A stretch of 64,000 nucleotides of DNA from Microbotryum violaceum (taxonomy: Eukaryota): NCBI GenBank assembly GCA_001244265.2, contig CDLV01000017.1, positions 372,001 to 436,000 of the forward strand. Reading direction: 5' to 3'. Numbering within the stretch: the stretch's first letter is position 1; each line of letters opens with the position of its first letter. The position numbers and the translations under genes are program-made. The notes under the pieces were generated by a model. The model saw only the letters and a program-made list of their open reading frames with translations, made no database searches and was not told where the DNA came from. Shown here in pieces: positions 39,201-63,681 of this stretch.

Positions 39201-42200
39201 CGTACGGTTCCATCTCAATGGAGGCCCACTCGGCCTTGGCCATTGCGATGAACCGCATCGGCGGCAAGTCCAACACTGGTGAAGGTGGAGAGGACGCCGA
39301 ACGATCGGACCTCTTGCCCAACGGCGATACGATGCGATCGTCAATCAAGCAAATTGCGTCGGGACGTAAGTAGATTGTTCCTCTATGAATATGCGATATT
39401 TCGTTTCATGAGATACTGACGGCGGAGGTTCTCTCGTTGGTTGCTAAAGGTTTCGGTGTGACCTCGAACTACCTCGCGGATGCCGACGAGTTGCAAATCA
39501 AGATGGCGCAAGGTGCCAAGCCCGGAGAAGGTGGTGAACTGCCCGGCCACAAGGTGTCCAAATCGATCGCACGCACGCGTCACTCGACCCCGGGTGTCGG
39601 TCTCATCTCGCCTCCCCCTCACCACGACATTTACTCGATCGAGGATCTTAAGCAATTGATCTACGACCTCAAGTGCTCGAACCCGCGCTCGCGCATTTCG
39701 GTCAAACTCGTGTCCGAGGTCGGTGTCGGAGTCGTCGCTTCCGGTGTTGCCAAGGCCAAGGCCGACCACATCCTCATCTCTGGCCACGATGGTGGAACGG
39801 GTGCTTCGCGATGGACCGGTATCAAGTATGCCGGACTCCCTTGGGAACTTGGTCTCGCCGAGACCCACCAAACACTCGTACTCAATGACCTCCGTGGTCG
39901 AGTTACGATCCAGACCGATGGCCAGATCCGTACCGGCCGTGATGTCGCGATCGCGTGCCTGTTGGGTGCTGAAGAGTGGGGCTTTGCGACGACGCCTTTG
40001 GTGCGTAGGGATCACCGACTTGAACGTGCACATAGCCTTTCGGGGCTGACCTTGCGCTTGCTCACCTTCGAATTTACAGATCGCCATGGGTTGCATCATG
40101 ATGAAGAAGGCAAGTGGATCGAATGAGTAGGATAAACCCTGCTTCAAGGCACTTACTAACCGTTTGTTCCCCTTCATAACGCTAACAGTGCCACCTCAAC
40201 ACTTGCCCCGTCGGTATCGCGACCCAGGACGAGCAGCTGCGCAAAAAGTTCACCGGTCAACCCGAGCACGTCGTCAACTTCTTGTACTACGTCGCCGAGG
40301 AGATGCGATCGTTCATGGCCAAGCTTGGTTTCCGCACCATTAACGAGATGGTCGGTCGCTCCGACATGCTCCGTGTCGACGATAGTTTGCGCAACCCTAA
40401 GACGGCGAACCTCGACTTGTCGGCGCTGCTCAAGCCCGCCTGGCAAATGCGCCCCGGTGTCGCGACCTTCAAGTCGCGCGCGCAGGATCACAAGCTCTAC
40501 ATCCGCCTCGACAACAAGTTTATCGACGAGGCCGAGCCTGCCTTGCTCAAGGGCCTGCCCGTGCGCATCGACTGCGACGTCGTCAACACCGACCGTGCGC
40601 TCGGCACGACGCTCTCGAACCACGTCTCGAAGCGCTACGGTGAGGAGGGTCTACCCAAGGATACGATTCACATCTACGCCAAGGGCTCGGCCGGTCAATC
40701 GCTCGGTGCTTTCCTCGCTCCCGGTATCACGATCGAGCTCGAGGGTGACTCGAACGACTACGTTGGCAAGGGTCTCTCTGGTGGTCGCTTGATCGTATAC
40801 CCTCCCAAGGTCTCGCCGTTCAAGGCCGAGGAGAACGTCATCGTCGGCAACACTTGCTTGTACGGTGCCACCTCGGGTCAGGCCTACTTCCGCGGTATCG
40901 CCGCCGAGCGTTTCGCCGTCCGCAACTCGGGCGCGACTGCCGTCGTCGAAGGCTGCGGTGACCATGGTTGCGAGTACATGACCGGTGGTCGCGTCGTTAT
41001 CCTCGGTATGACCGGCCGCAATTTTGCTGCCGGTATGTCCGGTGGTATTGCTTACGTCTTTGACGGCGCCAAGGACTTCCGCGCCAAAGTCAACATGGAG
41101 ATGGTCGAACTCGACACTGTCAATGACCCGCGTGAGATCGCCGAGCTGCGTGGCATGATTGAGGACCACCAGCACTGGACGGGTTCGTTCTTTGCCGAGC
41201 GCGTGCTCAAGAATTTTAACCAGTGGCTGCCTCGCTTCGTGCGCGTCATGCCCCTCGACTACAAGGCCGTGCTCGAGGCCGAGGCCGCCAAGCAAGCCAA
41301 GGAGAAGGCCGCCAAGCACCCTCCTGTCGACATCGTCATCCCCGTCGCCGGTGTCCAGCCTGCTCACAAGTCCAACGAGCCCTCGGTCGTTGATCTCGAG
41401 GACGCCATGGTGGATGACACCACGGCCAAGAAGCGCGTCGAGCAGCTCGACAAGATCCGCGGCTTCATGAAGTACAAGCGCCTGACCGAGTCATACCGCA
41501 ACCCGCGCAAGCGTGTGCAGGATTGGGCCGAGCTCTCGACCCGCCTCGGCGAGGACGATTGCAAGCAGCAGGCCGCACGTTGCATGGATTGCGGTGTCCC
41601 CTTCTGTCAGTCCGACAGTGGTTGCCCCATCTCCAACTTGATCCCTAAGTGGAATGACCTCGTCTTCAAGGGCCAGTGGAAGGATGCGCTCGACCGGTTG
41701 CTCATGACGAACAACTTCCCCGAGTTCACCGGTCGCATTTGCCCGGCTCCTTGCGAGGGTGCTTGCGTGCTCGGCATCAACGAGCAGCCCGTCGGCATCA
41801 AGAGCATCGAGTGCGCCATCATCGACAAGGGTTTCGAAATGGGATGGATGAAGCCCCAGCCGCCCAAGGTCCGCACGGGCAAATCGGTCGCCATCATCGG
41901 TTCCGGTGCCGCCGGTCTCGCCGCCGCCGATCAGCTCAACAAGGCCGGTCACTCGGTCACCGTCTACGAGCGTCAAGACCGATGCGGTGGTCTGCTCACC
42001 TACGGTATCCCCAACATGAAGCTCGACAAGCGTGTCGTCCAACGCCGTCTCGACCTTATGGCCGAGGAGGGTGTCAAGTTCGTCACCAAGGCCCACGTCG
42101 GTGTCACCCACAACATTGACGAGATCCGCTCGGCCAACGACTCGCTCATTGTCGCCACGGGTGCGACCTGGCCTCGTGACCTCAAGTTGCCGAACCGCAA

Positions 42201-43124
42201 CCTCGACGGTATCGACTTTGCCATGACATTCTTGTCGGCCAACACCAAGTCACTGCTCGACTCGAACCTTGAGGATGGCAACTACCTCTCGGCCAAGGGC
42301 AAGAACGTCATCGTCATCGGTGGTGGTGACACGGGTAACGATTGCATCGGTACCTCCGTTCGTCACGGTGCGCTCAGCGTCACCAACTTTGAGTTGCTGC
42401 CCCAGCCCCCGCCAACGCGCGACCAGGCGTCGAACCCCTGGCCTCAGTTCCCTCGCACCTTCAAGGTCGACTACGGACACACCGAAGTCTCCTCCTTATT
42501 CGGCTCGGACCCTCGTCAGTTCTCAATCAGCACCAAGGAGTTCGTCTCGGACGGCAACGGCAAGGTCAAAGGCATCAACACCGTTCGCGTCGCTTGGGAG
42601 AAGGACGCCTTCGGCGCATGGAAGATGGCCGAGATTCCGGGCTCGGAGGAGTTCTTCCCCGCCGATCTGTGAGTTGGACCTCGTGCTGCTTTTCCAATCT
42701 GTTTCGACCACCTTTATTGACGTGTCAAACGTTCTCTTCGATTCAGCGTTCTCCTCGCCCTTGGGTTCTTGGGCCCCGAGGAGGCTGCAATCAAGGCGCT
42801 CGGCCTCGAGCAGGATGCTCGATCTAACATCAAGGCCGACTACGGCAAATTCGCGACCAACGTCCCCGGCGTCTTCGCCGCTGGTGATGCTCGTCGTGGT
42901 CAATCGCTTATTGTGTAAGCACTGGCTCTTCTCGCGCCTATCTGGACCAGAGAACTGACGTCGAATCGTCCGTGTACAGCTGGGCTATCGCTGAAGGCCG
43001 ACGATGCGCTGCCCAGGTTGACGAGTATTTGGTGGGCAACACCCGCTTGCCCGCCGCCGGATCGATCCCTGAGCGTTCCTTCAAGTCGAGGAAGCCGGCT
43101 GCGCCGGTCGCCATCCAGGCTTAG
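36253..43124 (+). CDS. GLT1: NADH-dependent glutamate synthase (GOGAT), fused large and small subunits, multi-exon
   Basis: [10 protein letters not shown] amidotransferase start, [75 protein letters not shown]. Confidence 0.99.
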
Positions 43125-43949: not shown

Positions 43950-44984
43950 TCAGAGGTCATGTTCGACCTTGACTCGGGACGTAGACGCCGTAGGAAGGGG
44001 AACGACTGAGCCTCGGCCCATCTCGGTATCTGTAGTGGAACAAAAGAGAATACAATAATTAGTTGCTACACAATCTCTCGAACATTGGTCAATGGACTGA
44101 CCTTGATCCGTAACATCGAATCCAAGGTCATCTATGCCTCCGCAAAGCGATCCAAGATCGTCCAAGCTCGCAGCGACGGTCGAGTCAGATACCTCACTGA
44201 CCTCTCGTCGTCGACGAAGGCTACGACGCAGCGTGACGTTGGTGTTGTAGTCTGAAGGATTGCGGTTGGCCGTCGACTTTGCGGTCGATCGCTTGCTTCC
44301 CCGAGGGGTCGTCGCCTCGGTCTCGGTGGCGTCGCCATCGTCGTCGGAAGCTTCGGCAAGCGCGGAGGAGGCAGTGGAAACGCGGCGAGCCTTCTTTGGT
44401 GCACGACGAACCCCCGAGTCTTGTCGCCCCGAAGTTGACTTGCTTGATCGTTGAGCACTTGTCGATGGCGTGACGAAGGGATCTTGATCAAAGACGACCC
44501 CAGCGGCAGCGGCAGCAGCGGCTGCAGCAGCTGTGCGAGCGCGAGTTCTACCCGCAGTCGGTCGAGCAGCAGCAGCAGCAGTTCGAGGTGCGTTCCGAGG
44601 CACCTCGACGTCATCCTCATCCTCATCCTCATCTTCTCCGTCCTCGGGTCCCCGCTCGTCCTGGGCTCGACGTGCCCGCTTGCCACCAGCAACCGGGACG
44701 CCGCCGGCCCTGACATGCTTCATCATATTCGGCAAATCCTTACTAGGGCCCACGAACCTCCAAACCGACCTCTCTCCATCGATTTCCTTTTGATGCAACA
44801 CAATCTCTTGCGTTCCCGACGTGGACCATCTCTCGAGGAAAGAGATGGTCTCCACGCCTTCAGCGGTGGGTTGGCGTCGAAGGAGTTCGCTCGCCGAAGT
44901 GTCGAGCATATCATTCGTAATCGCATCGATGTGAGCGGTCGCGGCAGCGGCTTTTTTCGAACTCCTGGCGGGTGTGAGCCTCAT
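43950..44984 (-). CDS. Hypothetical low-complexity protein, possibly transposon-associated
   Basis: 344-codon ATG-initiated ORF with acidic and Ala/Ser/Arg-rich tracts; no recognised domain. Confidence 0.4.
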   Translation of the reverse strand: MRLTPARSSKKAAAATAHIDAITNDMLDTSASELLRRQPTAEGVETISFLERWSTSGTQEIVLHQKEIDGERSVWRFVGPSKDLPNMMKHVRAGGVPVAGGKRARRAQDERGPEDGEDEDEDEDDVEVPRNAPRTAAAAARPTAGRTRARTAAAAAAAAAAGVVFDQDPFVTPSTSAQRSSKSTSGRQDSGVRRAPKKARRVSTASSALAEASDDDGDATETEATTPRGSKRSTAKSTANRNPSDYNTNVTLRRSLRRRREVSEVSDSTVAASLDDLGSLCGGIDDLGFDVTDQGQSIDQCSRDCVATNYCILFCSTTDTEMGRGSVVPLPTASTSRVKVEHDL

Positions 44985-45952
44985 GATTGAATGTGTGCGG
45001 GCCGAAATTTATTTGGCGATGGGGGCTTCCTCGCGGTTCGCGATTGTAAGCGGAGTCCGGGAGCTGGACTTGAAAAAAAAGTGCCGGCCGATGTGGGGGG
45101 GAGGCAACGAGTGCCGGCAGTATTGCCTATCACTGGTAGATGTGGCGATGTTGTAGATCACAGAATGTAGAAAGCTATTATTCAAAGCGCTTTGTATCAG
45201 CCCAGGGCTCTCAGAATCGTTTGAACCCCGCTCAGCGAGATCGGGCACACTTGGACCAGGACTGACCTCACCGGATCGGTGCGAGCAGCGGTGACTCGGT
45301 TCTTGAAGGGCCTTCGTCGATGGTCGCAGGTGATGTTCGTTCCAAGGATGGAAAGAGTGTGAGCGAAAAGCGTCGAGTCAAGAGATTACGAGAAGAGGGA
45401 CGGAACAAAGGAAGGACACCAAAAAGATAGATGGAGCACACCGGGGGGAGTGTTCGAGTGATTTATCGCACTATGGAAATGTGACGACGAATATTGCCTT
45501 TGAAGGACGTTGCGCGAGCCGTCGCTCTTTCTTCTTGTCCGATGCCCTCATCACAAAACGCGACCGTTGTGTGCTTGGAAGGCCCGGCATGTGACGGCCA
45601 GCCGGAGCGAAGTGGGGGTGCTCGACGAGCGGGGCGCGGCGGCGGCCGTCGGCGAGAGGGGGCTGGCCGATGGTGGGAATTCTCCTGTTTGGGCCATAGC
45701 GCGGGTTTCAGAATTTCAGATTCGACTCTTGAGACAAAAACGGTTGGAAGTCTGATGGCTTCTGGCTTTGTTGCTGCGTAAAAGGAATCGACCAAAATGC
45801 ATCTCATTTGGTGAAGGCAAGAGGATCATGTACAACATGCCAAAGAGAAGAAGAAGGTAGCAACATTTCCGTGCAGACCAGGGCCACGATCTCGGCGGAC
45901 CCCCTGTTTTTCCGACTCGACGCGCGGGGCCGGCGAAAGCCCTTCCCCACGC

Positions 45953-48823
45953 TCAGCTCGACGCACTCTTCGACCTCTGCTTGATCAAGCTCTTCCTCGC
46001 CTTCTCTACCTTCTTCTTGACCTTCCTCAACGCCCCAATCCCACCATGCATAACCCTCGTAATCAAATCGCAAGCCTCCCCCTTGTTTAATTCCTCAACC
46101 TTGACCCACCCACCTTCCCTCTCCCTCCCTGGAACCCAAAGTCCTTCGATCCTCCCATCTTGGATCTCATTCTTCAACTTGTTGGAAAGCATAGTTTGTT
46201 GAGAGAGAGTGGCAGGATGTTCACGCCATGGTGCGAAACGACGAGTCGAGATGGTGGGTTTCCACAAGTCGACATTAGCGACGAGGGCGTCTACGGTGGC
46301 GAGCAGATGACGAATGTCGGGGTGAGTTCCCAAAACGGTAGGCGTTGCATAGGGGTTACGAGTGGAGGCTAGTTGGGGTATTCGACGATAACCTTTGGCT
46401 TCCCATTGTGGGACGACTGAGGTGGAAGCTTCGTCCTTCGGCGAGATTCGGATATAGCCTTTTCCTCCCAACTCCAAGACATAAGCACCCTGTCCTACCC
46501 CGATCCAGGAATTACGTGTCAAACGCGAAAGAGGGATCCGGCTTGATTCCGAGTGTTTCGTCGTCGAAGCTTTGGATCGAGAGGCGAGGAATTCGGTGAC
46601 GGTATTGAATTCTTCGTAGGCTAAGCGGGAAGGGTCGGCGTCGATGTAGGGGAGGATCAAGGCTCGCGGTTCAGGAGCGGGGGAGGTGATGGCGAGGTTT
46701 TGTAGGTCCTTCGTTGATTGGGCTATGGGGACGTGAAGATGGGTCAGCGAAGCTCCACTCTTGGCACCCTCGTGTAATTCGACTTGCTTACCCTCAATAG
46801 CCAAATTCGGATCAATCCCGAACAAAGTCGGCGTACACGCGATACCTTCCGTCGAATTCCCCACGAAATCAATGATGAGGCAATCTGTTTTCCCCGTTGA
46901 GGGACTCTTCCTCATCCCTCGACCAATCATCTGTTGAAAGAGGTTGCGCGATTTGGTCGGTCGGGCGAGGAGTACGCAGTCGATAAAGGGAAAGTCTGCG
47001 CCTTCCGTGAGAATACCTGGTGGGGGTGGGTTGTTCACCGTGTCAGGATTGGGCACAAGGACAAGCCCACAGCGTGAGGGAGAATGGAGATACTGACTGC
47101 AATTAACCAAGACCTGAATCTCCCCCTTTCGAAAAGCATCATAAATTTGTTCCCTATCCCTAATCTTGATCCCCTGATGCACGAACCTCGCATCGATCCC
47201 TTGCTCCCTAAACGCATTCGTCAACGAAACCACATGGTTCACATCCACCGCAAAGACCAATGTCGAGCGTCGAGTTTGTTCGGCTTTCTCCTTCCAAGTT
47301 TCGACGCAAATTCGATTGATGGGAGCTTGATCGACCGCACGAGCTAGGGAAGCCATGCTGAAGTCGCCGGAAGTTTTGGAGGTGGAGATGGAGTTTAGGT
47401 CGAGTGCTGACCCGAGTCTCACGGTCGTAAATCGGATATCGCATAGCCAACCTTTGGTGATCATGTCGAGCCATGAGGCGTGCCAGACGATCTTTTGGAC
47501 GACTTTGCCTAGGGCCAGTCCATCGGCGCGGGAAAAGGTCGCAGTGAAAGCGAGGATGGGGATACAGAGTCCACCTGAGGCGGATAGACAGAAGGGCGTG
47601 GGCGGGAGATGAGGAGGATCAGGCTGGGTCGATGAGGCGGAGAAGGAAAGGACGGGAGAGGCGGCGAGTACGTCGTCTTCGATGATGACCGCCGAGGTCT
47701 CGGATGTTTCGCTGATGCGAGGGTCGAAGCGACAGAGGATGTTGATGTAGGATTGAGAGGCGGCGTGGTGGGCCTGCAGTGGTCCACACGTCGGTGTCAG
47801 TATGGAACCCGAGCATGTGGGAAGCCGCTTTTGTGTGCGCACCTCATCGACGATGACGGCCTTGAAAGTACTCGGATCGAACTTGTCCAAACGTGCAAGA
47901 TCGCTTCTAGCAAGAGTCTAGAATAGATCGGGGGAGATTAGACTGTGTTGAGCTTTCAACGCGACCGTCGAATCTCGAGTGACTCGCTTGAAAAGTGGCC
48001 ACGGTCACGTCGGCGAATCCACTTGCGTCATTGTCACCTTGCTCGACTTCGACGTGCTAAAAAGGGACAGCATGATACGCTGAAGGATCAGAGGCATTGT
48101 AAAACTCATGGAGACAGCCCACGCGGTGACGACCAACTGACCAAGGCAGGATAAGTTGTCTTTACAACCTCGGCGGCTTGCTTAGCCAATTGAATGGTGC
48201 CGACCAGAATCAAGACGCGATTCGCCAACTGTGCCGTATCGGGATGTATCCTTGCCGGTAGTCGAGGGATCAACTCAGTGAAGATGGCAGTTTTTCCGCT
48301 GCCTGTAGGGAGATTATTGCCACGCGGGTTAACTTGAAGGTGAGAAATCTGCTCGGTTGAGGTGGGTTATTCTGGACTGACCGGTTGGAGAGGATATGCC
48401 GAGACGAGAAAGCTCGGTCGTGGATAGAGTGTCGAGAATGGTATTGATGCAGTCGATCTGGTAGGGACGGAGCTTGAAGGGCCGAGCGTCCAGAGAGGGT
48501 ACGGTTGTTGCCTCGGTCTCAACCTCGCTCATGACGGTTTCAGGAGCCTCGTCCGGGATGGTGAGCTGACGAGGTGCACAAGTCGAGGAGAACGACCGCG
48601 GTGAGGAAAAGGCCCCGAAGGTAAAGGAGTTGAATTGCCATGTTTGGTATTGTTGTGAAGATGATTCAAGTGCTCGTCGGGTTGGTGTTGTTTGAGCTGT
48701 GAGTGTGCTGAACGAACGGTGATCGTCGGGAGGAGCAACAGCAACAGGCGATGGCGTACGGCGACTGGTGATGAGCACGCGCGGTATCCGACATGGACAC
48801 GAGCGAATGAAAGAGACGATCAT
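45953..48823 (-). CDS. IRC3: Irc3-like mitochondrial SF2 (DExH) helicase, multi-exon
   Basis: LRPYQIDC, SSPTG|SGKT, VIVDE|AHHAAS, FTATFSRADG, RSTLVFAVDVNHV, ILTEGADFPFIDCVLLARPTKSRNLFQQMIGRGMR; Arg/Ser-rich N-terminus. Confidence 0.9.
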
Positions 48824-50997: not shown

Positions 50998-52896
50998 TTA
51001 TGTTATCACCCCCGCCCACTCCAGCCTCACCTGTTGTCCAGGGAGGGCCGAATGCGCAGTCGACCTCGTCGTCGTGGTCTTCAACCCCGCGAAAGTATCC
51101 TTCTTGGAATTTTTGGGCAGACGTGACGCAAGTCCCAGTTCGTAGAATAGAGGTTCCCGTTCGCAGTGCCAGAAATTCACCCCTGTGATCATTCAGAAAG
51201 GTGTGCAGATCAACACCAATTCACCGACCTTGGAACCTAGAAGGAAGGGTCGAGGGTATAGAAAACTGACCATTCCCATCCCTCACATTCTGAGCGGCCA
51301 AACCCTTCTCCAGTTCCTCGTTTCCATTGTCACTTGTACTCCTAACTTTTTCAGGATGAAAGTTGACACCTCCTTCGCGGGCGACGGGTCGACGAGAAGG
51401 ACGCGTATTGCGGCCCCCTTGTTCGTGATCTTCTTCGGAGGATCCGTCGCCGATGGGTCGGTGCGGTTTCTTTTCTTTGTAGAGGAGGTCATAGGTTACC
51501 TGAAAGAAAACTAACTGCATTAGTTTCGTAGAGCGCGGGAAAAAATGAAGTTCAGGTCTCAATGGGGAACTCGCCCTTTCATGAGGTGCGAGGAAGCGGA
51601 AGAAGCCGCCGGTTTGGCGAATCGCGGTATGGTGTACAAAGACTGGGCCAAGCGAGGTGTAGCATCCAGGTCAGTGACTCGTGAAGTCTCATGAATTTGA
51701 AAGAATTTGGTTATGCGACTCACCATCCCTTCCATCGAGCTCGTAGGCGTGGTCATCGACCAAATACCCCCAGCCTTCTGCGAACATCAGCCCAAAATCA
51801 ATCGTCAGCAAATCGAGAACCGCAGCATACATCTCTCGACCACAGAGGTTCAGAAAGTGCACTCACTCATATTCCAAAATTTGACCTTCCCCGAACGTTC
51901 GTAAAACACCTCCCCACCTTCCAATCGCCGCAGGACCGACGGCCCCATCCTCCCTCTGACGGCGCACTGCCCATCTTGAATAGGGGGTCCATGACTAGAA
52001 CCGACGCCCATCGGAGGAGAGTGGAAAGGAGGATAAGGGCTGGGTGACATACAGCGGTAAGGCCGTGGGATAAACTCCATGGGTGCTGGAGTACTTTGAT
52101 AGTTCGGGGAAGGGTGGTACACGGATTGAGGGGGGAAATCGAAGAAGGGGGATGGTGGAGGCGCACTGAGGTGGAGAGCGCCCGTTTCGGCTTGGCCTTG
52201 GATGGGGAGCCAGCCACTGGTGTCTTGCATGGCAATGCCTGGGGAGGACTGAGGCGAGGGGTAGGCTTGTTGGGGTACTCCGCCGTGGAGTATGATCATG
52301 GTGGGCGAGTGGGACGAGTTGTCCACGTTGGCAATGGCCACACCAGGGTGATGATCGGATGCAGTGGTGGAGGCGTAACGGTGATGAAGCGAGGCGATCG
52401 AGCCATTCGGAGACGAGCGGTAAGGCCCCGCCATCGGCGGTGTAATGTGAGAATGGTAGTGATGGGATGGATCGTACGCAACATGGTATTGGTGGGAGGA
52501 GTAGTCCTGCTCGAGAGGGTACTCGTGAACGGGGTAATGCGGGTGCCCCGTGGCGACGATGGATGAAGGAATGGGGTGAACCGGCGCCCCGGTCGGGTTG
52601 ATGCGAAAGCTAAACAAATCCTCCAAATTGGACCGCTGCAAACCGCTCGCGGAGATGGACTCCTCCATCTCCACTGCTGTAGACGGTGAAGGGAGCAGAC
52701 CCTGTTCGATCTTGCGTGGGGTAGTGGAAGAACGCGCTCGACGTCGACCACCCAAGGTGACCGTTAACGACGGGGGATCCGAAGTGGGGGATGGCGTTTT
52801 GACTTGAGGTGGGGGAAGCAGCACCTCACGACGTCGTGCACCAGCGGGAGAGGACCGAGGTCTGTGCGAGAGAGGCGTTGGAAAGAGAGGATACAT
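50998..52896 (-). CDS. Second cold-shock-domain protein (CSD-2) with long Pro/His-rich N-terminus; start uncertain
   Basis: Spliced: RSGKVKFWNMK|GWGYLVDDHAYELDGRD|VFVHHTAIRQTGGFFRFLAPHER|VTYDL...KGLAAQNVRDGNG; exons ...-51867, 51777-51724, 51642-51575, 51499-~51271, last exon to TAA at 50998. Confidence 0.85.
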
Positions 52897-54229
52897 ACGA
52901 AGATTCAGCTTCGAGGGTCGCAGGGTGCCATGGGAGCCGTGCTTGAGGTGCGGTGCAGCACGATCTCAAAGGTTCGAGGTGAACGAGAGCGACAAAGAGC
53001 GCTAGCGATGACGCCGTGCTGGGGAAGGTAGTAGTACAAGCCATGACGGAACGCACTAACCTCTGTATCGTATCCGCTTTCAGTACATGTAAATCCGTCA
53101 TGATGAACATGGTAGTCACACTTCAGCGAGGAGAGGAGTTATCAGAGCTGAGAGATGCTGGGGGACGGCAGAGGGTACTAGCTCAAGAAAGTGCTCGAGC
53201 TAGTCGCTTTCCGAATCGATGACTCGCCTTCTGAGCGGGGCTGAGGCATGCGCCCCAAGACTCAACGTTCCGTCTATCGCTATCCGCAGTCCAGTACGGT
53301 GATCACTAAACTCTATTCTACCCAAACCATGAGAAAACAAAGAACATACTCCAGTCCAAGCCGCTATGCAACGCGGCCTGAACGTGCACGTGCAGAGAGA
53401 GAAAAAGCAAAGACAGCAAGACGCGCACATCAACCTTTCCTCCCCCATCCTCATCTGACCTGATGAAGGTGGAGATGATTCGAGGTCGAAGCGAGAGTGA
53501 AGGCGAGGATCGGAGGTGGAGTTGAGGTCGGTGATAGAGGTGGGGACGGTGTAGTGTGGTGTCAAGGTGGCGTGAAATGAAGGTGGTGATGGAGATGGGA
53601 AGCTGGAGGAAGATGAACGGCGGGGCAAAGATGAAGGCGAAAGCAAGATCAGCCAAAGGCCGTCGTCGTACGAGGTGGGGTGTGGCCGATGATGGCAGAG
53701 GCGGTGGCGGTAGCGGTACCTACTCGCAGGTGGCCATAAAGGGACTGACCGGATACAGTCAAAAAAGCAAACATACTTTTTGGCCTTGCAAGACGACCTG
53801 GACTGCCTGGATCCTCTCCACGCTCAAGCGCAAGCGATTAGGAGGTTGGTGATGTTCCGAGTCAGGGGACAGCAATTCTGCTCGGGGGGTACTCGGACGA
53901 ATGGGAGGGGTGAACTCATGATGGCTGAAGGTACACACCTGCCGACTCCCACCACCTACCACCTCGGTCCTGCGTCAGTTCGTTAGTCGTTACGGCCCAG
54001 TGGTGGGGGAGCCATGTGAGGGTTACGCAGCAACGAAGAAGAAGCAAGGGGAGAGAGAAAAGGAGGTGAGGGGCGCCGCAATCATATAGGCGCTGAGGTT
54101 GGGCTTGACGCCGGTAAAGCAAGTCGAGTCGAGCTCGCCTGAATGATGCCAATGACGCTAGCCCGCGCCGCTGCCGCTCGGCATCGCAGCTCCCCTGGCG
54201 CTGCGGTCTTCCGAAAGGAGACCCCTCGG

Positions 54230-56660
54230 TCACCGTGGTCACCAAGGTCAGCTCCAACATCTGACCTTTCTGGTGGCAAATTCTCGCTCGTGCGACAATC
54301 ACTGACGATCTACAATCCGTTGCTCAACGTGCAGTACTCCTCATTGACGTGTCGACGACTGAGCGCAGTATCTGGACCACCACTCGGGGCAACAAAGGAA
54401 CCGTCGAGCACGGACGCGCTTTCGTCAAGAGGGTAGCCGCGAAGTACCATCGACAAGCTCAAGCGCACGGCGGCAGCACCCATGTGTTTGCCATTGTCGA
54501 CAACGAGCTTTGGCGACCAGAGCTCAAGCGGGAAACGGTCAAGAGGCGCAAGGAGAAGGCGGGCGATAGCGGCATGAACGTCCGCGTTCGCCTCGATTCC
54601 TTCACCACCGAGCCGACGTTCATCTCGACGGCGTCGCTCAAGATCCAGTGTGACACCTTCCCTGCCCCTACCTCGTCACCCGTGGATCTAGAGAAAGCCG
54701 ATGGCATTATTTTCTGATCGTTGACGCCTCTCGTAACGTTTGTCATGGCAAAGTCCGAGGCGGACACCCTGGCGTTTCTCGTCTGTCGTCAAGGGTTCCT
54801 GTTACACGTGCCCCTCGATCCTTGGTCGAGTCTTCTCTACTCGAGGGATTCTGACTGGATTTTGAACCCGCCCGAGTTCTGCCATCGTCGCATCCTCGTC
54901 GACATGTCGATTCCTGACTCGACCCAAAACCCGGCCAACAAGCTCAAGATAGCTCCTCGACGGGCCTCGGCGCGGTCACAATGCTCGTTGCTCTGCCTCA
55001 TTGATACCATGGTGCTCGGATGGGACGGCGAAAACTTATCATCGCCGGGATCCTTGCGGGTGGAGATTACATCCCCGGCGGTCTGCCCTCCGTCGCGTTC
55101 AATAAAGCGTTCGATACGTACAAAGAATGCCTCTCACGTAAATTTTGGGAGGGACAAGAACTTGGCGTCGTCCTCGGGCGCTTCCGAGCCATCAAGAAAG
55201 TCGAAAAATTGAGCGATACGTTCGTCAAAGCGATCGAAGAACTTTGAAACAACATGCCGGCGATCTTTGTGCTACTGGAGAAGGACGAAGGCGAACGGTT
55301 CAACAAGTTCGACTGCGCTGGCGACCAAGCATCTCCCTCGGACCATTCCGTCCCAATCAAGTTCCCCCCAAAATTACGTCGCTTTACGAGAGGAAATCGC
55401 CAGGAGAGCAAATATTACCCAAGGGCACCCAGGTCGCTCCAGCTCCTCGATCCCAAACCCTGTTCGAGGTGCCACCGGATGCTTCGGCGCCGCCGAGCGA
55501 GTGGTTCTTTGGCAACTCGGTCTATCAATCTGCTCGAGCTCAGAACGCCAAGACTCCGGCCCGACAGCTCCTTTGTCAACCGAGGGAGAGCATCGCGTCG
55601 CTCAAGTCGACCAAGGATGCCATTGTGGGCCCAGGGAAGCGCCCATACGAAAAGCGCTTCGATCGACTTGTCAAGCTTTGGCGCAAGGAGAGTCGCCGAG
55701 TCGCCCGAGCCCCTGCGAGTGTTCAAAGCGCCGTTCTGGGCTTCCCCTTGTGGGAGTCGTTCGACTGGAACAAGCCTCCAAGCCTCCAGAAAGGGGTCAT
55801 CCCCTGCAGAAGAAGCCTGGACCCGAGCCGACCCGAGCCGCCGCACCCCCGGTCGAGCCGACTCACACTGCCACGAGCACGCAAGCCAAGCCTGCTCAAG
55901 CCAAGAAGTCGTCGACGTCAAAGCTCACACTAGCGGGTAAGGAGTACTCCCGGCGGACGCGTCGTTGCGACTTTACCAAGAGTTTGCGCGAGCAGCTCCC
56001 TCCCTCGCCAGATGGCAAGAGGAAGCATAGGTACGCCGAATTCTTCTCCGACCTGATGCGCGTCCAAGTCGTCATCCGGTCCATCGAGGCGAAGGTGTAT
56101 CAGCCTTGCGTCCTCAATTTGTCATTGGCTTCAATACCGGAAGGCATGATGTGGGGTGGGAATTATGACGCCGAGCGGTTTGCAGGTGCCATTACCAACC
56201 GTACCGCCACACTGAGCGGGTCCTACCAGCCAAGGGCGTCGTCCTCCTGCCGGGGCTGCTTGCTTACCCGGTGCGCTGATAGTAGGGTGTCCCATCATCC
56301 ACTCCACGCTGCCATTAACTCGAGTGACCCCAACAAGTCTGCTTGCTGCCTTCGGTAGTAGAAGATGTCATCAGATATCAGGCACCTACCTAGGCAGGTT
56401 GATCCTCACCGGTCGCCAGCCATTGGTCCAACGAGTACAAAGTCGTGAGTTTGCGAGTTGCGCAGCACGCTGTCTCTGACAGCGGAGCCTCACTGGTGTC
56501 CGAAGATGACAGGTGCAAGTTATATGGATTACAACTAGCTTCTGGTGTCAGCTCGATAAGATACGATAGTGCTGAGATAGGGAACATCAGTACTCACCTA
56601 GCTTCTGGTGTCAGCTCGATGAAGAGAGAGCTGAAGAAGCTAGGCGCGCGCAATCTCTAT
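54230..56660 (+). pseudogene. Decayed XPG/FEN1-like (PIN + H3TH) nuclease coding region with long downstream extension
   Basis: In order: LLIDVS (D 54346), FAIVD...RPELKRETVKRR (D 54499), KSEADTLA (54757-54765), YSRDSD (54838-54855), ILAGGDYIPGGLPSVAFNKA (D 55065). In-frame TGA at 54262, 54715 and 55245, plus frameshifts. Confidence 0.8.
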
Positions 56661-56664
56661 TTCT

Positions 56665-57290
56665 AATGCCTGTGGCCCGTCGTAAGGCCTTGCCTTACAC
56701 TCTCCCCTCCTTGACACAAGGCTCCCCTCTGAAAAAAAATATGTCTCATTCCTCGTTCCGATTTTCCCAGCTGTCCAATGCCTCCGTGGCCTCCAGTGCC
56801 TCGGCAGGCTCCCATGAATCGCTTTCCGACGGCCATGAAACCCACAAGACCATATATTGAGTTTTCCCCGCTCGGATCCTTTCATCGACGATGTCCTCGA
56901 TGACCCACTCGGGTTCTCCACCTACGTCCACCGGTCCCGGGCGCGCGGGTTTTCGGCTTGGGAACAATTCCGAAAATATGAGCGGTAGGCCGTGAGCTTG
57001 CCCGTTTGGAAGAACGGAACTGCTGAATCGTCCTTGTTGAATTGCAAGGTGTACGTGGAGATCCCTGTCTGCGCCGCAACAATGCGACAAGGGCCGTCGA
57101 AACGGTCCATGAGCTTGGCTGCGCGGCGCTTGCGGGTGTGAAGTCGCTTCCTACGGTCACTTGAGTCAAGCAGGACAAGGTCCCCGACGGCCCATGACGG
57201 TTCATCTGCGCGGTCCTTGTTGGCTTGGGCGGCTTGACGAACTTTGGACACAGCGAGTTGGGCCGGTGCGCCGCCGCGGGCAGCTACGAG
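56665..57290 (-). mobile_element. Ty3/Gypsy chromovirus fragment: integrase C-terminal GPY/F region, chromodomain, PPT and start of 3' LTR
   Basis: ANKDR...WAVGDLVLL...KLMDRFDGPCRIV; chromodomain EWVIEDIVDER...QYMVLWVSWPSESDSWEP; purine tract AAGGAGGGGAGAG followed by TGTAAGG starting at 56699. Confidence 0.9.
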
Positions 57291-57844
57291 TGACGACGAG
57301 TCCATGTGGGAGCTGTGTATGGATGTGCACTCGGTTGTAAAGGCAAGCATCAATGAGAGGACAAACCCCCTCTTCCTAATCCATGCCATACCGGTGCGTG
57401 CACCCCTGTGCACCGTTTTGTACGAGCCCGTCGCTACCGCCCGATGCGGCGGCCACCACGATCCACAGGGGTCAGCAGTGGTCCGCAGGCCCAAGTCGAT
57501 CTTCGGCATTGGTGCATTGGGGTGCAAGGGGGTGCATCGAGGTGCACCTATATGCATTTTGATCTCAAAAGTTTGGTGTATCAGTTTATGTGAGATTCAG
57601 ATCCCTGCACATGCTTGCATCCATGTACACAGCGGGGCGCGGTGGGACGGCGGTCTCCTGGCACGGCTAAAACGCTGCGAAGTGCAAGCGCACCGGTCCA
57701 CCAACTGTCAGAGTGTATATTGCTGTTTCATCCCACTTCTATTACCGATCACGATGAGTTACTAGTTGTTGATATTAGTCGCCTCGCGCGGCTATTGCTT
57801 GCCTCGCGCGCTCCTACTCTGCGCTTCTCTTCTTTCTCCAACTG

Positions 57845-57964
57845 TCTTTACTATCATCCTCGGCTCTCGTACTAAACGTATCTTGTGCCTCGGATTTAGG
57901 GTAGTTACTTTGAAATACCGAACGGTCTTTACTATCATCCTCGGCTCTCGTACTAAACGTATCT
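57845..57964. repeat. 40-bp direct repeat x2 (GTCTTTACTATCATCCTCGGCTCTCGTACTAAACGTATCT), possibly within an LTR fragment starting TGTTGATATTAG near 57767
   Basis: Copies at ~57845 and ~57925 read directly; the LTR interpretation is weak. Confidence 0.75.
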
Positions 57965-58389
57965 CGTGCGACGGCCAAGCTGAGGCTCGAACTCGACCAC
58001 GCGCTTGCATTCACATGCACGGATGCGGTATTGCTATGAACGAACGATTGCTGAGGCTTATCGTGTACACCTAATCAATACATGTGCTCTCCGAGTAGTG
58101 GGTCGCAGTGCACCCATTTTCAAGAATGCTCCGGCGCCGGCCAGCAAGCGTAACGCCGGTGATGAGTCACCGCGACGCACCAGAATCGGCGTGCATCGGT
58201 GTGCATTGGAGTGCACACATCGGAAATTGGATCTGTACGGTTTCATCTTCGATTTTCAGGCAGCTGCACTGATGTGCACACGACTGCACGCTCATGCACA
58301 TGCCTCCGACTCGGATGAGCCCGTATACCAAGTCCCTGGCTGGCTCGCCTCGGTCCGCACCGGCGCGGCATTGATTCAGTGGATGTCGA

Positions 58390-58750
58390 CGTGCACGGGT
58401 GTGCATCAGTGTGCATGGGCGTGCACCGACCTTCTTTTGGGCCAAAAGTTCTTGTGGATCGACTTGCAAGCGTATGCAAGGATCTACGCGTCTGTGCACG
58501 GATATGCATACCAGCCCGGGCCCGGCCCTGGGGAAGAAGTGGAATGGCTAGTGTGCGTGTGGGTGCACGGGCCTGCATCAGTGTGTATGGGCGTGCACCG
58601 ACCTTCTTTGGGGTCAAAAGTTCCTGTAGACCAACTTGCAAGCGTATGCAAGGATCTACGCGTCTGTGCACGGACATGCATACCAGCCCCTGGGGCAGAA
58701 GTGAAATGGCTAGTGTGCGTGTGGGTGCACGGGCCTGCATCAGTGTGCGT
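58390..58750. repeat. Tandem ~160-175-bp repeat (two copies plus a partial) in a TGCA/GTGCAC-rich non-coding element (~57300-58800)
   Basis: TGCATCAGTGTG...GCGTGCACCGACCTTCTTT...CAAGCGTATGCAAGGATCTACGCGTCTGTGCACGGA...GCTAGTGTGCGTGTGGGTGCACGGGCC is repeated. Confidence 0.9.
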
Positions 58751-59049
58751 GGTCGACGTGCACTTGCATTATAGCGGCAGAGCAAGGTCCTGGGAATCCA
58801 CTGGATCATGTGCAAGAGATCTGACCCATGGGGTTAGTAAGTTTTTGATGACTGCAACTCCACAAGTTCTTTCACGATGGATTTCGACTTGGAGCAAACA
58901 TGGATTCCATTCTCTTGGGCAGAGCATGTATGGCACGACCAAATTTAGATATACTACAGAATTCAAAAAAATGATCTATCGAATTCGAGCCCTCTCACTC
59001 CTCCTTGCTCTTCTGCTTGCTCCTACCCTTGCCTCTCACCCAACCCGGT

Positions 59050-60664
59050 TGCAAGGGGTCGGCGGTGCCGCGATCGAACGAAGCAGGGGGGCCGAGTCGA
59101 AGCGCCATGTCTCACTCGGCCCAACCCGAACAGCAAACCGACTCGGACTGGATGCCCTACTCTCGCCCCTCGAAGACGGAAAGCACCACGGAGAGGATCC
59201 TCGACGCAGTGGAGTTCCGAAACAAAAATCTCCACCTCAAGTTCCCGTCCGTCGACTGGAGCGAGGCGCGACTCGTCGCCGAAGGTGACCCGGAGTGGAG
59301 CATGGAATACCTCTCCCCCTCCCAGCTCCTGCCCGGCCTCCCTTGTCTGCCTGCGTCGAGCGTGGTGCCGATGACGGCGGAGAAGCGTCAGAAGCACCTT
59401 GATCGTGAGGAAGCGGGTCCTGCGAAGACTCCGGACATCGATCCCCGCCGCAACCGCCACCTCTTCGTCGACTCGGGGGGCAGCAAGAGGATCCGAGCCG
59501 GCATTGTGTATGTACAAGAGCTGCCTCAGGCATACCTCAAGTTCTCAGATCACGACGGTGAGGGCCGCTTCTACACAAAATCTGTGAGGATCGAGTCGCG
59601 AATGACGGTGGCGTGCACCGAGGACAAAGCACGAATCGCCACTCGCTCCGACTTCGACCCACCCATCGCTTCAACCTCGGCAACCACCCTCAATAGGGAC
59701 GTCGACATTGTATCTACCCCCACTCGCGCGCCTCCGCAACCTACCCCTTCGCCGGCCGTAGCATCCACCTCGGCGTACACCTCTGATTTTGTCCGAGATA
59801 AGTTCTATTTTTCAGCGTTTTATTTTTCCACTCGATCCTTGGGCTGATCCGACCGTGCGTTTGGCAGAACCCTCCTCCTCGACGAGTCGCCGTTCTGAAC
59901 GTCCGCCTCCCCCTCCGCCTCATTTCACGACTCCGACAATGGCCTCTTTGTCGAAGCGAAAGGCGGCAAAGAGCGTAGCGTCCAGCTCGACGGCCACAGC
60001 CCAGCCCGTGCCGGAAGCATTGTCAAGCCGCAGCTCACAACGCGCACCGCAAGTGGCGTCGTCGAGATTGGGTGTGCACACAGACTTGCAAAGGTGTTGG
60101 CCGTGAATGAGGGGTAGTAAAAATGTTAAGGGCTCACCAGTGCGCCCGGTCAAGTGCTCTTGAGCGAGTGTGATGTCCCTAATAGCTACCGAGTGTGCCA
60201 CCCCGCGGCTCGACCCGCGCACCTCCGAGGAGTAGTCGACTTACCGCCGTCAGCTGACCGTGCACGACGGTGCATCACTGTGCAACCAAATCATCCCAAC
60301 GGCCGAATCATCGAATTCCCCAGAGGAGACATTGTGCGGTTTGACAAGGCTATCAGAACTTTTTTCTTCTTGCGGATCCAAGGGTGAGTGCGCCGGCCCC
60401 ACAACTGGCCCGTCGCCGAAATGGGAGAGGAGGTCTTTCTTTTGTTCGGACTTCGCTTGACCACACCGGGGTCAATGACTTGATGAGTCACGCGGACAGG
60501 GACAAAGCGGGATGCCGAAAAGCGTGATGGATAAGCTCGATGAACATCACATTGAAATAACCGAAGCGATGCGGAATGTTCGGAAGAGTCCCGACAGCTC
60601 GTACGTGGCCGAACCGGGAGAATTCGAGTTGAGCCGACATCCGAGTTGTCAAACTACATTCTAG
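59050..60664 (+). pseudogene. Decayed TnpB/Fanzor-like RuvC-zinc-finger coding region (candidate)
   Basis: HLFVDSGG (D 59470); same frame KVLAVNEG[18-nt insert]LTSA (E 60109); Cys residues including IRTF-fs-SCGSKGEC; HADRDKAG (60489-60512); probable C-terminus to TAG 60662-60664. Confidence 0.55.
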
Positions 60665-62044
60665 CCTGGAAAACCAGGGACATCAGCTGTTCTGGGCAGG
60701 GAGAACAAAGAAAAAAAAAACGAAACTAGCCGACAGTGGAATAGTTACCCGTTGCTTGGCGCGATGTACGTTTGGTGATGCCGCGGAACTCGGGTGCACA
60801 TCACCTAATTGTCCCCAAAGCGGGTCCGTGCGCGCAGACTGAAGATTAGAGCATGACCTCGCTGGCTCGGCCGGACCCCTCTCTCTTTCTCTTTCCTCAT
60901 CGAGCTCGTAGAAAGGCCCACTGCCGCCCACACTTCGCACCCGCCCTCTCCTTCGTGCAATGTCGCTGTCAATAGTCCGAGTATAGAGTGATGGAGTTGG
61001 GTGAGTTGGTTGCTGCCTTGTTGCTGCGTTTGGGTTGGCCCGGTGCGACCTCGTGCGACCGAACCCCCACTTGGCTCAGAGACTCAATCGGCTGACCCTC
61101 GCTCTCCTAACCCACCCCTACCCTTTATTGTCGATGTTGCCCTCGTTTCGATCAGACGCCTGGGGCGACTACAAATCGGCTCCATCCGGTCGCCCGCATC
61201 AACCTTTGTGTCTCACACTTTGTTCCAACATTGCCATCGTCCCCACCCCTCTCGATCATCAGTAAGTCACGCTTTCCTCGCCGTGTCTATCCGACAACCA
61301 GCCCAAGGAGCCTGCTTCAGCAACACGACATCCCGTGAGTCTTCTCACTTAGAACAACGTCTGTGTCATCGTCGTCATTGGCATCGTCGTCGTTGTTGGA
61401 TATCAAGTCACGGGTTGGCAGGTCGCTGGGGATGGAAGGATAAGGACGGCACAACAGCTTAGAGAGCGGATGGTGGGATGCAACACTCCTACGGCTTGGG
61501 TATAAATAGTTTTGTTTGGTCTAGGTAGATTACATCGCCCACACCAGTGCGGGTGGCATTCAAGAAGCTTCCCCGGGCTGCACACTCGGTGCGCCGTCGG
61601 AAGTTGCAATCTACATCAGTAATGTCGTCGCGATAAAATGAAACAGAAAATACAAGTTTTAAGAGCTAAAAAAATACTTTGAATATTAATAAAAGTATCG
61701 CCCTTTTTTCTTCTTGTCTCTTTTGGTAAGGAAAATAAAATAAAGTTAACTTCGCTATCCTACTGCTACGGTGTCGCGCCTTCGCGAGCGCCCTCGCTTG
61801 GCTCCGCTCCTCACCTGCTCCCTTCTACCCGACTCCGCACCCGCCCAACCCCCCCAACTCATCCACTCCCCATCCCACCTTGTCCCCACTTTATAACCGC
61901 TCTTCGTCGCCGCCGCCCTTTTGCCGCCCCTTTCGATCCGCAACCCTCACCTTCCCACCTCCACCCTCGGCTCACCTGACCTCCTTTCCATAGCTCCTTC
62001 CGCCGACAAACCTTTCCACTACCCGCCTCGCCTTTCTTTAAACC

Positions 62045-63681
62045 ATGTCCACCAAGGTTGAAGACAACTCCACCACCAGCAACGCCTCTGCGTCTGCTGC
62101 CCCTGCTGCGGCGACGGCGACCTCGGCCCCTGACGAGACGCCCAACGTCGGCGCGCTCTCGCTCGAGGACGACGCCAACAACGACGCCAACAATGCCAAC
62201 AACGCCGATGAGGGTCTCACCCTTCGTGCGCTCGTTAGCTCCAAGGAAGCTGGTGAGTTGCAGCGCTTGATTCTCTCTCTGTAGTGGCTCGTGGTCACTC
62301 TTCTGTTTCTGTCGATCACGACGCAACGAGTTCGCCGGCGGGCGCTTCGCACACGGCGCAAAGCACGTGCATCTCCGACGTCTGAGCGCATAAAAATGCA
62401 CTTGTGATGCAACGGCAACTGTCATTACCATCTCATACAACCAAGATGTCTTTTCCACCTCATTCTATCATCTGATGCTGACCATTGCTTCTCCTCCTGA
62501 ACTCCTCCGCTTCACCACGTCTCGTCTTTCACCACTTCCCACCACTCGCAACACCTACCTTCCTGCCACTACCAGGTGTCATCATCGGCCGAGGGGGTGC
62601 TACGATCGCTACGATCCGCCAAGATTCGAACGTGAAGGCCGGCGTGTCCAAGGTCGTGCCTGGCATCGTCGACCGCGTGCTCTCCGTCGGGGGTTCCGTC
62701 GATGGCGTAGCCAAGGCAAGCCTTGCTTTGCGCACTCAATGGGTCTTGATGGACTCAGCTGATCCGGTTTGACCCTGCCCTCTTTTGAAACAGGCCTACT
62801 CTCTCGTTGCGCAAACGATCCTCGAGAACCCCGTCCCCGCGCCCGGTGCCGCCGATGCCCCGACGGCCCCCACCTCGACGACGACGACCGTGCGCTTGCT
62901 CATCTCGCACTTGCTCATCGGCTCCGTCATCGGCAAGGGCGGAGCCAAGATCCGTCAGATTCAGGACGTATCCGGCGCGCGCATGGTCGCGAGCAAGGAG
63001 ATGCTCCCGCAGTCGACCGAGCGCGTCGTCGAAGTCTCGGGTGCGCCCGAGGCGATCCGTCTCGCCGTCAGTGAGATCACCAAGTGCCTCATCGAGGACT
63101 GGGATCGCTCGCAAGGCACGGTCCTGTATCACCCTGGGTCGGAGGGTATCGGCCACGGCGGTGCGATTGGCAACGGCTTCTCCGCCGGCGCATCCTTGTT
63201 CGCCGTCGGCGGTAACCGTCGCGCCTCGAGTGGCAACCATGCCGGTGGCTACAACGGTGGCAACCAACGTCGCGTCTCGAACGGGATTGAAGGTGGTGTC
63301 CTCGGCAATGCCGGTGGCGCTCCTTCCCCTCAAGCCCGTCGTGTCTCTGGTAACGGAGCCGGTGGTGCGACGCCCTCCGCTCCTTCCGCGAACGAATCCG
63401 ACCCCAACTTCCGCGAACAAAAAATTTCGATCCCGAGTGACATGGTCGGCTGCATCATCGGCCGCGGCGGAACCAAGATTAACGAGATTCGTCGTTTGAG
63501 CGGCTCCAAGATCTCGATCGCCAAGACGGCGCATGACGATACGGGCGAGAGGATGTTCATCATCTCGGGCTTGCCGGAGCATAACGAGAAGGCATTGTTC
63601 TTACTCTATAACCAGTTGGAGAATGAGAAGAACCGAAGGCTCAGTGCGCAAGAGCAGGGCGAGGGAGCGCAGGAAGCCTAG
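62045..63681 (+). CDS. Triple KH-domain RNA-binding protein (hnRNP K/PCBP; Rnc1/Hek2/Pbp2-like), 3 exons
   Basis: LTLRALVSSKEAG|VIIGRGGATI, IGSVIGKGGAKIRQIQ...KEMLPQSTERVVEV, ISIPSDMVGCIIGRGGTKINEIRRLSGSKISI. Confidence 0.95.

Follow-up and report, generated by a model that had tools for sequence, protein, structure and literature searches.

A decayed FEN1/XPG-like gene copy in a Microbotryum repeat nest, and the long-protein family with a candidate Fanzor-like module to which it points

Introduction

Does a nest of repeats in Microbotryum violaceum preserve the remains of a single gene in which a flap-type nuclease was joined to an RNA-guided one? The question is raised by a stretch of 64,000 nucleotides (nt) from assembly GCA_001244265.2 (contig CDLV01000017.1, positions 372,001 to 436,000 of the forward strand) – the window, in what follows – in which positions 54230-60730 hold two coding-like blocks on the plus strand, separated by repeats. 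An earlier reading made from the letters alone (the sequence-only reading) took the two blocks for the halves of one decayed gene of a mobile element, block 1 supplying a PIN-type nuclease akin to XPG and FEN1 and block 2 a RuvC nuclease of the TnpB/Fanzor kind.

Our data lead to a divided answer. The interval is probably made up of nested repeats, dead and mutually unrelated; block 1 is a relic, and the intact family to which it belongs probably combines a FEN1-like domain with what may be a Fanzor-like module. The PIN-Fanzor fusion is therefore best regarded as an unconfirmed lead for that family, and not for this locus.

The first block

The relatives of block 1 emerged from a search of longer proteins in which the query was the frame-1 piece 54265-55002, with X at the TGA stop. 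Two of the 1750 candidates scored: P0001, a protein of 1702 amino acids from Microbotryum saponariae (expectation value E 1e-127, 85% identity, 98% coverage), and P0002, of 861 amino acids (97% identity over 43% of the query), a gene model of M. saponariae that represents a second, shorter copy of the same family. When P0001 was compared with the window by tblastn, four pieces were found, colinear with its residues 21-635 (615 residues) and 74-94% identical to it. The features of block 1, together with a separate match to P0002, are as follows.

54280-56118, plus strand: block 1, remnant of the 5' third of a multi-copy gene of the P0001 family (residues 21-635 of 1702), from tblastn of P0001
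54280-55230 (roughly), plus strand: FEN1/XPG-like nuclease domain, followed by a linker region
54280-55122, frame 1: tblastn piece of P0001, 80% identity
55032-55460, frame 3: tblastn piece of P0001, 82% identity
55352-55900, frame 2: tblastn piece of P0001, 74% identity
55777-56118, frame 1: tblastn piece of P0001, 94% identity
54337-54354, plus strand: acidic motif LLIDVS
54490-54507, plus strand: acidic motif AIVDNE
54751-54768, plus strand: acidic motif KSEADT
54844-54858, plus strand: acidic motif RDSDW
55056-55070, plus strand: acidic motif AGGDY
61401-61502, plus strand: match to the last 34 residues (828-861) of P0002, from tblastn, 97% identity

What the sequence-only reading had said of this block was largely borne out. 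All five acidic motifs of the XPG/FEN1 type lie in correct order on the plus strand between 54337 and 55070, and the several hundred further codons that it saw behind them are real in that coding-like sequence runs on to 56118, the match to P0001 continuing through residue 635. The block is also broken, as had been supposed: it has two in-frame TGA stops (54715 and 55245), three frameshifts evident from the tblastn pieces (frame 1 to 3 to 2 to 1, near 55.02, 55.39 and 55.78 kilobases (kb)) and no recognisable start. Both stops (54715-54717 and 55245-55247) stand where intact relatives have W and R, and each could be the outcome of a single transition, TGG to TGA and CGA to TGA respectively, as would be expected of C-to-T repeat hypermutation. 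Since 1839 nt of block 1 correspond to 615 residues this part is without introns, which agrees with the earlier description of the gene as apparently intron-poor; its multi-copy nature is seen from four paralogues in M. saponariae.

The remainder of the gene is absent. For residues 636-1702 of P0001 the window has no counterpart, even when matches up to E<=50 were allowed and words of two letters were used; what scored best for them there (E 0.16) falls inside glutamate synthase. The block-1 copy is thus truncated after codon 635, and in place of what once followed stand a Ty3/gypsy fragment, tandem repeats and another repeat. In run X1, 54.57-56.04 kb had a summed contig depth of 216, against 206-219 in unique flanks; this gave no sign that the assembly contains further copies of block 1 with a likeness of at least 85%, depth not being equivalent to copy number. 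The comparison with P0001 shows block 1 to be what is left, without function, of the first 635 codons of a multi-copy gene of about 5 kb.

The kinship of the N-terminal domain with FEN1 and XPG is not visible to Pfam. Neither XPG_N (PF00752) nor XPG_I (PF00867) matches P0001 at E<=1, which counts against the assignment, and neither matches window fragments or read-through fragments of block 1 at E<=10. Because these two families miss the N-terminus, a profile was built from 25 archaeal FEN1 open reading frames (ORFs) fetched through PF00867. In hmmsearch with this profile, residues 1-340 of P0001 ranked first of 2001 sequences (the real one and 2000 shuffles), with 9.1 bits where the best shuffle reached 3.2. 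By hhalign, residues 40-309 of P0001 aligned with FEN1 22-259 over 217 columns (score 35.0, E 4e-4), a score reached by none of 148 shuffles (mean 16.5, standard deviation 3.4, maximum 27.4); the window fragment 54265-55002, again with X at the stop, scored 26.3, and none of 124 shuffles did as well.

The details of the alignment are telling. Nucleases of the FEN1/XPG group carry two Asp in the N region, a Glu/Asp pair and a D-x-D in the I region, and an Asp in the helix-3-turn-helix. The aligned columns pair LLVDVS of P0001 with AiDA of FEN1, IVDNE..PELK with FDGkPp.LK, SEAD with SEGEAQ, DSD with SQDyD and GGDY..G with GTDfN..G, so that D46, D97, E183/D185, D213/D215 and D287 fall in the FEN1 columns AiDA, FDG, SEGEAQ, SQDyD and GTDfN. 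The helix-3-turn-helix occupies the expected columns, and the acidic letters are retained in the window copy. A language-model search points the same way: 24 of the 30 nearest clusters carry XPG_I/XPG_N (21) or Pox_G5 (3), at a score of 0.93, the top family, Pox_G5, being probably not the right one by the tool's own warning.

Block 1 and its relatives therefore resemble FEN1, XPG and Exo1 (Rad2 nucleases) in the N region, the I region and the helix-3-turn-helix alike, their acidic residues occupying the same columns. The long family differs from them in its longer insert between the N and I regions, in a divergence too great for Pfam XPG_N/XPG_I, in the fusion of the nuclease domain to some 1,350 further residues, and in having a multi-copy, repeat-like gene rather than a single housekeeping repair gene. 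These alignments show the domain to be FEN1/XPG-like and a putative divergent member of the group.

The second block

Whether block 2 was ever joined to block 1 depends on what it encodes. The positions concerned are these.

59107 (Met) to the stop at 59845-59847, plus strand: ORF2, an intact ORF of 246 amino acids, from tblastn of P0003
59464-59481, plus strand: FVDSGG, inside ORF2
60100-60114, plus strand: 'VNE', downstream of the ORF2 stop and followed at once by TAG, TAA, TAA
60495-60503, plus strand: 'DRD', in a frame differing from that of ORF2

The sequence-only reading had described both blocks as broken. This is true of block 1; block 2 holds an intact ORF of 246 residues within a stop-to-stop frame of 58975-59847, its integrity following from the match to P0003 (226 amino acids), whose residues 1-226 cover it end to end at 77% identity. 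The motifs that had been taken for RuvC-I, RuvC-II, a zinc finger and RuvC-III (FVDSGG, VNE, TS, cysteines and DRD) survive in part. FVDSGG is present and is a real conserved motif, the ORF2 family retaining ...RNRHLFVD[SA].G...; the others lie past the stop or in another frame and have no homologue. An exhaustive HMMER search with 59182-60114 found nine proteins at E<=0.001 among 1.84 billion representatives, all of 71-243 amino acids, with best stretches that end by query residue 170; query residues 240-311, the 'VNE' part, matched none of those representatives.

ORF2 belongs to a family found in Microbotryum only, with gene models of 71-279 amino acids in M. saponariae, M. lychnidis-dioicae, M. 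silenes-dioicae (98% identical to the window) and M. intermedium. The family has no Pfam or NCBIfam match. By hhalign it reaches a probability of 0.33% when compared with P0001 and of 0.09% with bacterial TnpB, and no frame of 58.9-60.8 kb (stops as X) matches even a relaxed TnpB/Fanzor motif. AlphaFold2, given an 11-row alignment, returned an unusable model of ORF2 (predicted local distance difference test (pLDDT) 38.1).

A single decayed PIN-Fanzor gene, split by inserted repeats, would account for the common strand of the two blocks and for their plausible order; moreover, the order RuvC-I, RuvC-II, zinc finger, RuvC-III can be obtained from FVDSGG, VNE, TS, the cysteines and DRD provided that one moves at will between frames. 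In the intact relatives of block 1, however, residue 635 is followed by 1067 residues without a counterpart in the window, and ORF2 has a Met, a stop and a family of its own, with P0003 matching it from end to end. The 'VNE' part is without relatives, the profile comparisons with P0001 and TnpB fail, and 59050-60664 as a whole showed no RuvC/TnpB similarity. The idea that block 2 is a RuvC/TnpB module must be given up, and the idea of one gene is refuted at this locus by these comparisons; we allow it almost no probability. Block 2 is shown instead to be a separate gene of a Microbotryum-specific family unrelated to block 1.

Several further features of the ORF2 family deserve mention. Motifs of the form [IV]ASTSAxTL[DEN], read from window 59107-59847, P0003 and P0009, recur in its C-terminal third, twice in the window copy and three times in the protein of M. 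intermedium. In M. saponariae the gene models often stand as adjacent pairs (Chr5-2 g07839/40 and g08124/25). The first 52 residues of P0006 match 60046-60289 on the minus strand, just downstream of ORF2, at 78-80% identity, so in that copy the downstream segment is inverted in front of the ORF; this arrangement is either a repeat with rearranged forms or a gene-model artefact.

Intact relatives of block 1

The sequence-only reading anticipated that intact relatives might exist, and they do. The 90% cluster of P0001 comprises four gene models of 1631-1703 amino acids on three chromosomes of M. saponariae, namely Chr8-1 (Chr8-1g10022 and Chr8-1g09966), Chr9 (Chr9g10463, which is P0013) and Chr3-1 (Chr3-1g05884); long-protein models were found in this species only. 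That the four paralogues are multi-copy and 96-98% identical to one another indicates a young family, as expected of a mobile element. P0001 has no relevant match in Pfam (E<=1), in NCBIfam or, by phmmer, in PDB.

Between the FEN1-like start and a C-terminal module lie about 900 residues of unassigned sequence. An acidic run at P0001 residues 903-937 (GGGGSGEDDDDDDEDNDDDEDEEEEEGK...) splits this middle part, and a tail that is Gly-rich and then acidic (residues 1612-1702) follows the zinc-finger/RD module described below.

The gene models differ in ways that bear upon their reliability. In P0012, 23 residues are missing for which the window DNA has in-frame codons, P0013 is without 15 residues, and P0012 has 36 extra residues between 'FHTN' and 'FKRDD', at about residue 1286 – exactly the junction at which the similarity of P0002 to the long family ends. 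These differences look like gene-prediction choices. We take the place at about residue 1286 to be a probable short intron, which would separate the first 1285 or so codons from the C-terminal module.

Are both modules then part of one polypeptide? All four gene models join the two parts alike, and we think a single polypeptide somewhat more probable than two. Two points tell against it: the join is known from automatic gene models only, and the 36-residue read-through of P0012 lies precisely at the junction, suggesting an intron there.

The C-terminal module

The C-terminal module (residues ~1300-1600 of the long protein), which is not present in the window, is where a resemblance to Fanzor nucleases is to be sought. 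All four long paralogues read ...ILVAS-D1321-L-G..., followed after 203 residues by the Glu region, ...TVD-E1527-FR-T-S-SH-C1534-WHLD-C1539..., and then by ...C1570-T-H1572-MPS-D-R-D1578-ILGARN. All four thus share T1530-S1531-x-x-C, a zinc-finger candidate C-x4-C-x30-C-x-H, and R1577-D1578.

Published descriptions offer two standards for comparison. Bao & Jurka 2013 (PMC3627910) give the TnpB/Fanzor motif as D-X(125,275)-[TS][TS]-X-X-[C4 zinc finger]-X(5,50)-RD. The main text of Yoon et al. 2023 (PMC10711439) gives as Fanzor fingerprints a near-exclusive DPG at RuvC-I and an 'alternative E' six residues before the zinc finger, and names PF07282 (Cas12f1-like_TNB, or OrfB Zn ribbon) as the first filter of its survey. 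In the four paralogues exactly six residues separate E1527 from C1534 (E1527-FRTSSH-C1534), which is the alternative-Glu spacing in the form stated in that text. A relaxed motif, with the zinc finger written as C-x(2,4)-C...[CH]-x(1,4)-[CH], was found in four of four long paralogues, in neither of two other proteins, and in 10 of 20000 shuffles of P0001; the core that contains the Glu (the spacing of E-x6-C, TS-x-x-C and RD) was found in 2 of 20000.

Language-model features supply a second line of evidence. For residues 1280-1600, 27 of the 30 nearest clusters carry PF07282 and/or PF26935, at a score of 0.96 and with 185-189 of 256 features shared; by the tool's own statement a score of 0.95 is reached by shuffled proteins about once in 100. 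The neighbours come from giant viruses, green algae and Mucoromycota, groups that make up the known range of Fanzors. When the C-terminus was aligned with TnpB by hhalign its motifs fell in register.

Likeness and difference can be set side by side. The intact relatives resemble Fanzor1 and TnpB in a D-hydrophobic-G candidate for RuvC-I, the alternative Glu, [TS][TS]-x-x-C, a second metal-binding pair and RD; like Fanzor and TnpB genes they are multi-copy in the manner of a mobile element. They differ from Fanzors in having DLG (the TnpB-type form) instead of DPG, a zinc finger C-x4-C-x30-C-x-H instead of CxxC-x(12-18)-CxxC, and 203 residues from RuvC-I to the Glu against 120-160. They differ further in the roughly 1,300 residues upstream, which include a whole extra nuclease domain, and in lacking both a PF07282 match and significant similarity to bacterial TnpB profiles; nor was a guide RNA, a transposase or an element end seen.

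A substantial set of results weighs against the assignment. The regular expression was relaxed after the sequence had been seen; the strict CxxC...CxxC motif, as published, is not matched by the long paralogues, and the RuvC-I candidate, S-D1321-L-G, stands in a region without the DPG of the published fingerprint. Pfam, PF07282 included, has nothing at E<=10 for P0001 residues 1261-1608; NCBIfam has nothing relevant for P0001, nor has phmmer against PDB for P0001 or its C-terminus. A tblastn search of plasmids with the C-terminus gave one irrelevant chance match (E 4), and word-seeded searches with it recovered P0001 itself only among 3515 candidates of 936-2979 amino acids and no match among 3642 shorter ones. 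A hidden Markov model (HMM) of 23 Deinococcota TnpBs ranked the P0001 C-terminus 265 among 2000 shuffles, and hhalign against TnpB profiles was equalled by 33 of 433 shuffles and, with a 41-sequence profile, by 28 of 335. The AlphaFold2 model of the C-terminus, made from the single sequence, was unusable (mean pLDDT 30.2, predicted template modelling score (pTM) 0.20).

Comparisons with bacterial and environmental sequences added little. The alternative Glu was present in none of 18 cyanobacterial TnpBs (recovered from 30 loci), the C-terminus reached E values of only 0.39 and 0.48 at best against five cyanobacterial genomes, and of the 593 pattern stretches that the paralogue alignment picked up in a metagenome scan none was confirmed.

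These negatives suit a more modest explanation: the long family is FEN1/XPG-like, and its C-terminal motif merely mimics TnpB/Fanzor, either as an unrelated zinc-binding tail or through gene models that merge the nuclease gene with an unrelated neighbour. The HMM, profile, PDB and structure tests are all negative or not significant, DPG is missing, the zinc finger is non-canonical, and an intron or read-through is probable at the junction. Mimicry does not sit well, however, with the placing of residues 1280-1600 beside PF07282/PF26935 clusters at 0.96, with the rarity of the Glu-containing core among shuffles, with motifs in register with TnpB, or with four gene models that all join the parts alike; we regard it as unlikely, though deserving of notice.

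We hold with some confidence that the C-terminus is a true RuvC module of the TnpB superfamily. From its motifs and language-model features it would be a RuvC nuclease of divergent TnpB/Fanzor type that has a zinc finger. The expectation that intact copies would carry both domains has thus been realised in part: a FEN1-like domain and a TnpB/Fanzor-type motif occur in each long model, and the Fanzor assignment is unconfirmed by Pfam, PDB, TnpB profiles or AlphaFold2.

The relaxed TnpB/Fanzor expression matches the window at one place only, 44320-45318 on the minus strand, where the translation is of low complexity, rich in Cys, Arg and Ser, and has internal stops; we judged it a chance match.

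The repeat nest and its surroundings

Both blocks lie in a nest of repeats at about 53.3-61.7 kb, where contigs assembled from related genomes are interrupted and the summed depth rises abruptly. The repeats between the blocks, and the segment that houses ORF2, are as follows.

56746-57596, minus strand: Ty3/gypsy (chromovirus-type) fragment, integrase end and chromodomain, from Pfam
57840-58755, no strand assigned: tandem and dispersed repeats, repeat families D1-D3
57840-57974: tandem repeat, 54-nt units spaced 81 nt
58391-58755: tandem repeat, 127-nt and 73-nt units spaced 162-172 nt
59032-60501, no strand assigned: segment skipped in a shorter repeat copy (ORF2 and 650 nt downstream, with the 'VNE..TS..Cys' stretch), from contig joints

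The first of these is recognised by Pfam Chromo on 56746-57150 of the minus strand (E 8.9e-12, 45.2 bits, above the cut-off) and by SH3_Tf2-1 on 56922-57596 of the same strand (E 1.8e-5, 25.2 bits, below the 30-bit cut-off). It resembles Ty3/gypsy chromoviruses in its integrase-end SH3 domain and chromodomain, differs from them in being a fragment only, and is an unrelated insertion that forms part of neither block. Summed contig depth in run X1 reached 16768 at 57505-57871, against about 216 in unique flanks (up to about 78x). In this respect – unrelated repeats between the blocks – the sequence-only reading was correct.

The segment that contains ORF2 is missing from a shorter copy of its host repeat. 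Joints from 59031 to 60502, which skip 1470 nt and have 15 other letters between, were seen in the related runs X1, X13 and X18, a single contig in every case, and they mean that the ORF2-hosting repeat also exists without ORF2. No terminal inverted repeat and no target duplication were found at the ends of 59032-60501.

It might be proposed that the two blocks are parts of a composite mobile element, with a long nuclease as its first ORF and a small accessory protein as its second, of which the window copy has had its middle destroyed. P0003 (Chr9g10465), of the ORF2 family, is indeed two gene numbers from the full-length P0013 (Chr9g10463), and the window repeats this Chr9 neighbourhood on the same strand. 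The pairs of ORF2-family models on Chr5-2, however, are far in gene numbering from all four long genes, the repeat that hosts ORF2 also occurs without it, and the ORF2 family extends to M. lychnidis-dioicae, M. silenes-dioicae and M. intermedium, long models having been found in M. saponariae only. Repeats cluster in any case, and two co-occurrences are weak evidence; a composite element seems to us improbable, and the two blocks are best read as unrelated repeats.

At the far end of the nest summed depth in run X17 rises to about 105,900 at 61175-61541 (also 60808-61908), where unique flanks have about 60; the remaining three runs show depths of 1885, 34 and 13 at 61175-61541. The stretch is a very abundant repeat or RNA in the run X17 sample. 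No Rfam family and no tRNA was found in it, and it also encodes the last 34 residues of P0002. Contigs of run X17 skip 199 nt (52861-53061), 323 nt (62251-62575) and 146 nt (61261-61408), the last two with GT..AG ends; the skips resemble spliced introns of neighbouring genes, which suggests that run X17 may hold RNA. Rfam and tRNA scans of 53000-62500 gave no match, and no inverted repeats were found within 53500-61600.

The surroundings of the nest are otherwise an ordinary, gene-rich, Microbotryum-like chromosome region, the window having a G+C content of 52-60%. All database relatives of block 1 and block 2 come from the anther-smut genus Microbotryum. The neighbouring genes include the following.

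5125-5805, minus strand: ribosomal protein L13e
22953-26343, plus strand: kinesin
36584-42669, plus strand: glutamate synthase
45956-47917, minus strand: helicase
62773-63678, plus strand: KH-domain protein

Discussion

The window copy itself does nothing; its value is as a pointer to a family. Block 1 leads to an unannotated family of Microbotryum proteins that have no match in Pfam, NCBIfam or PDB, and the central issue is what those proteins are. The boldest answer is that they belong to a recently active, multi-copy element encoding a protein of about 1,700 amino acids that natively fuses an Exo1/FEN1-like 5' nuclease to a highly divergent, Fanzor-like, RNA-guided RuvC nuclease marked by the alternative Glu, DLG and a C3H zinc finger. 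We put this forward tentatively, as a possibility that falls a little short of an even chance.

If this is so, then a mechanism can be envisaged. The RuvC module of the intact family would make a double-strand cut directed by a guide RNA; resection of the 5' ends, in the 5'-3' direction, would next fall to the fused Exo1/FEN1-like domain and may steer repair to homologous copying from the copy that bears the element. TnpB has a homing role, and the proposed mechanism is an extension of it: the protein would act as a homing module of the 'cut and resect' kind, complete in itself.

We found no paper linking Fanzor with XPG or with Microbotryum, although the supplements of the surveys could list such proteins, and a search for Fanzor with 'PIN domain' found only an unrelated paper. 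The main texts of PMC3627910, PMC10711439 and PMC10432273 mention neither Basidiomycota nor a domain fusion (their supplements may list such proteins), and those of PMC3627910 and PMC10711439 make no mention of an exonuclease. Within the searches made, the fusion would, if true, be the first natural one of an RNA-guided nuclease and an end-processing 5' nuclease.

The long family thus comprises credible but unconfirmed new Fanzor-like nucleases. If the C-terminus is a working RNA-guided nuclease, then Fanzors would reach the Basidiomycota in a form that surveys based on PF07282 and HMMs would have missed. The native fusion, if true, would bear on the manner in which elements bias repair toward the copying of themselves, and on the design of compact editors.

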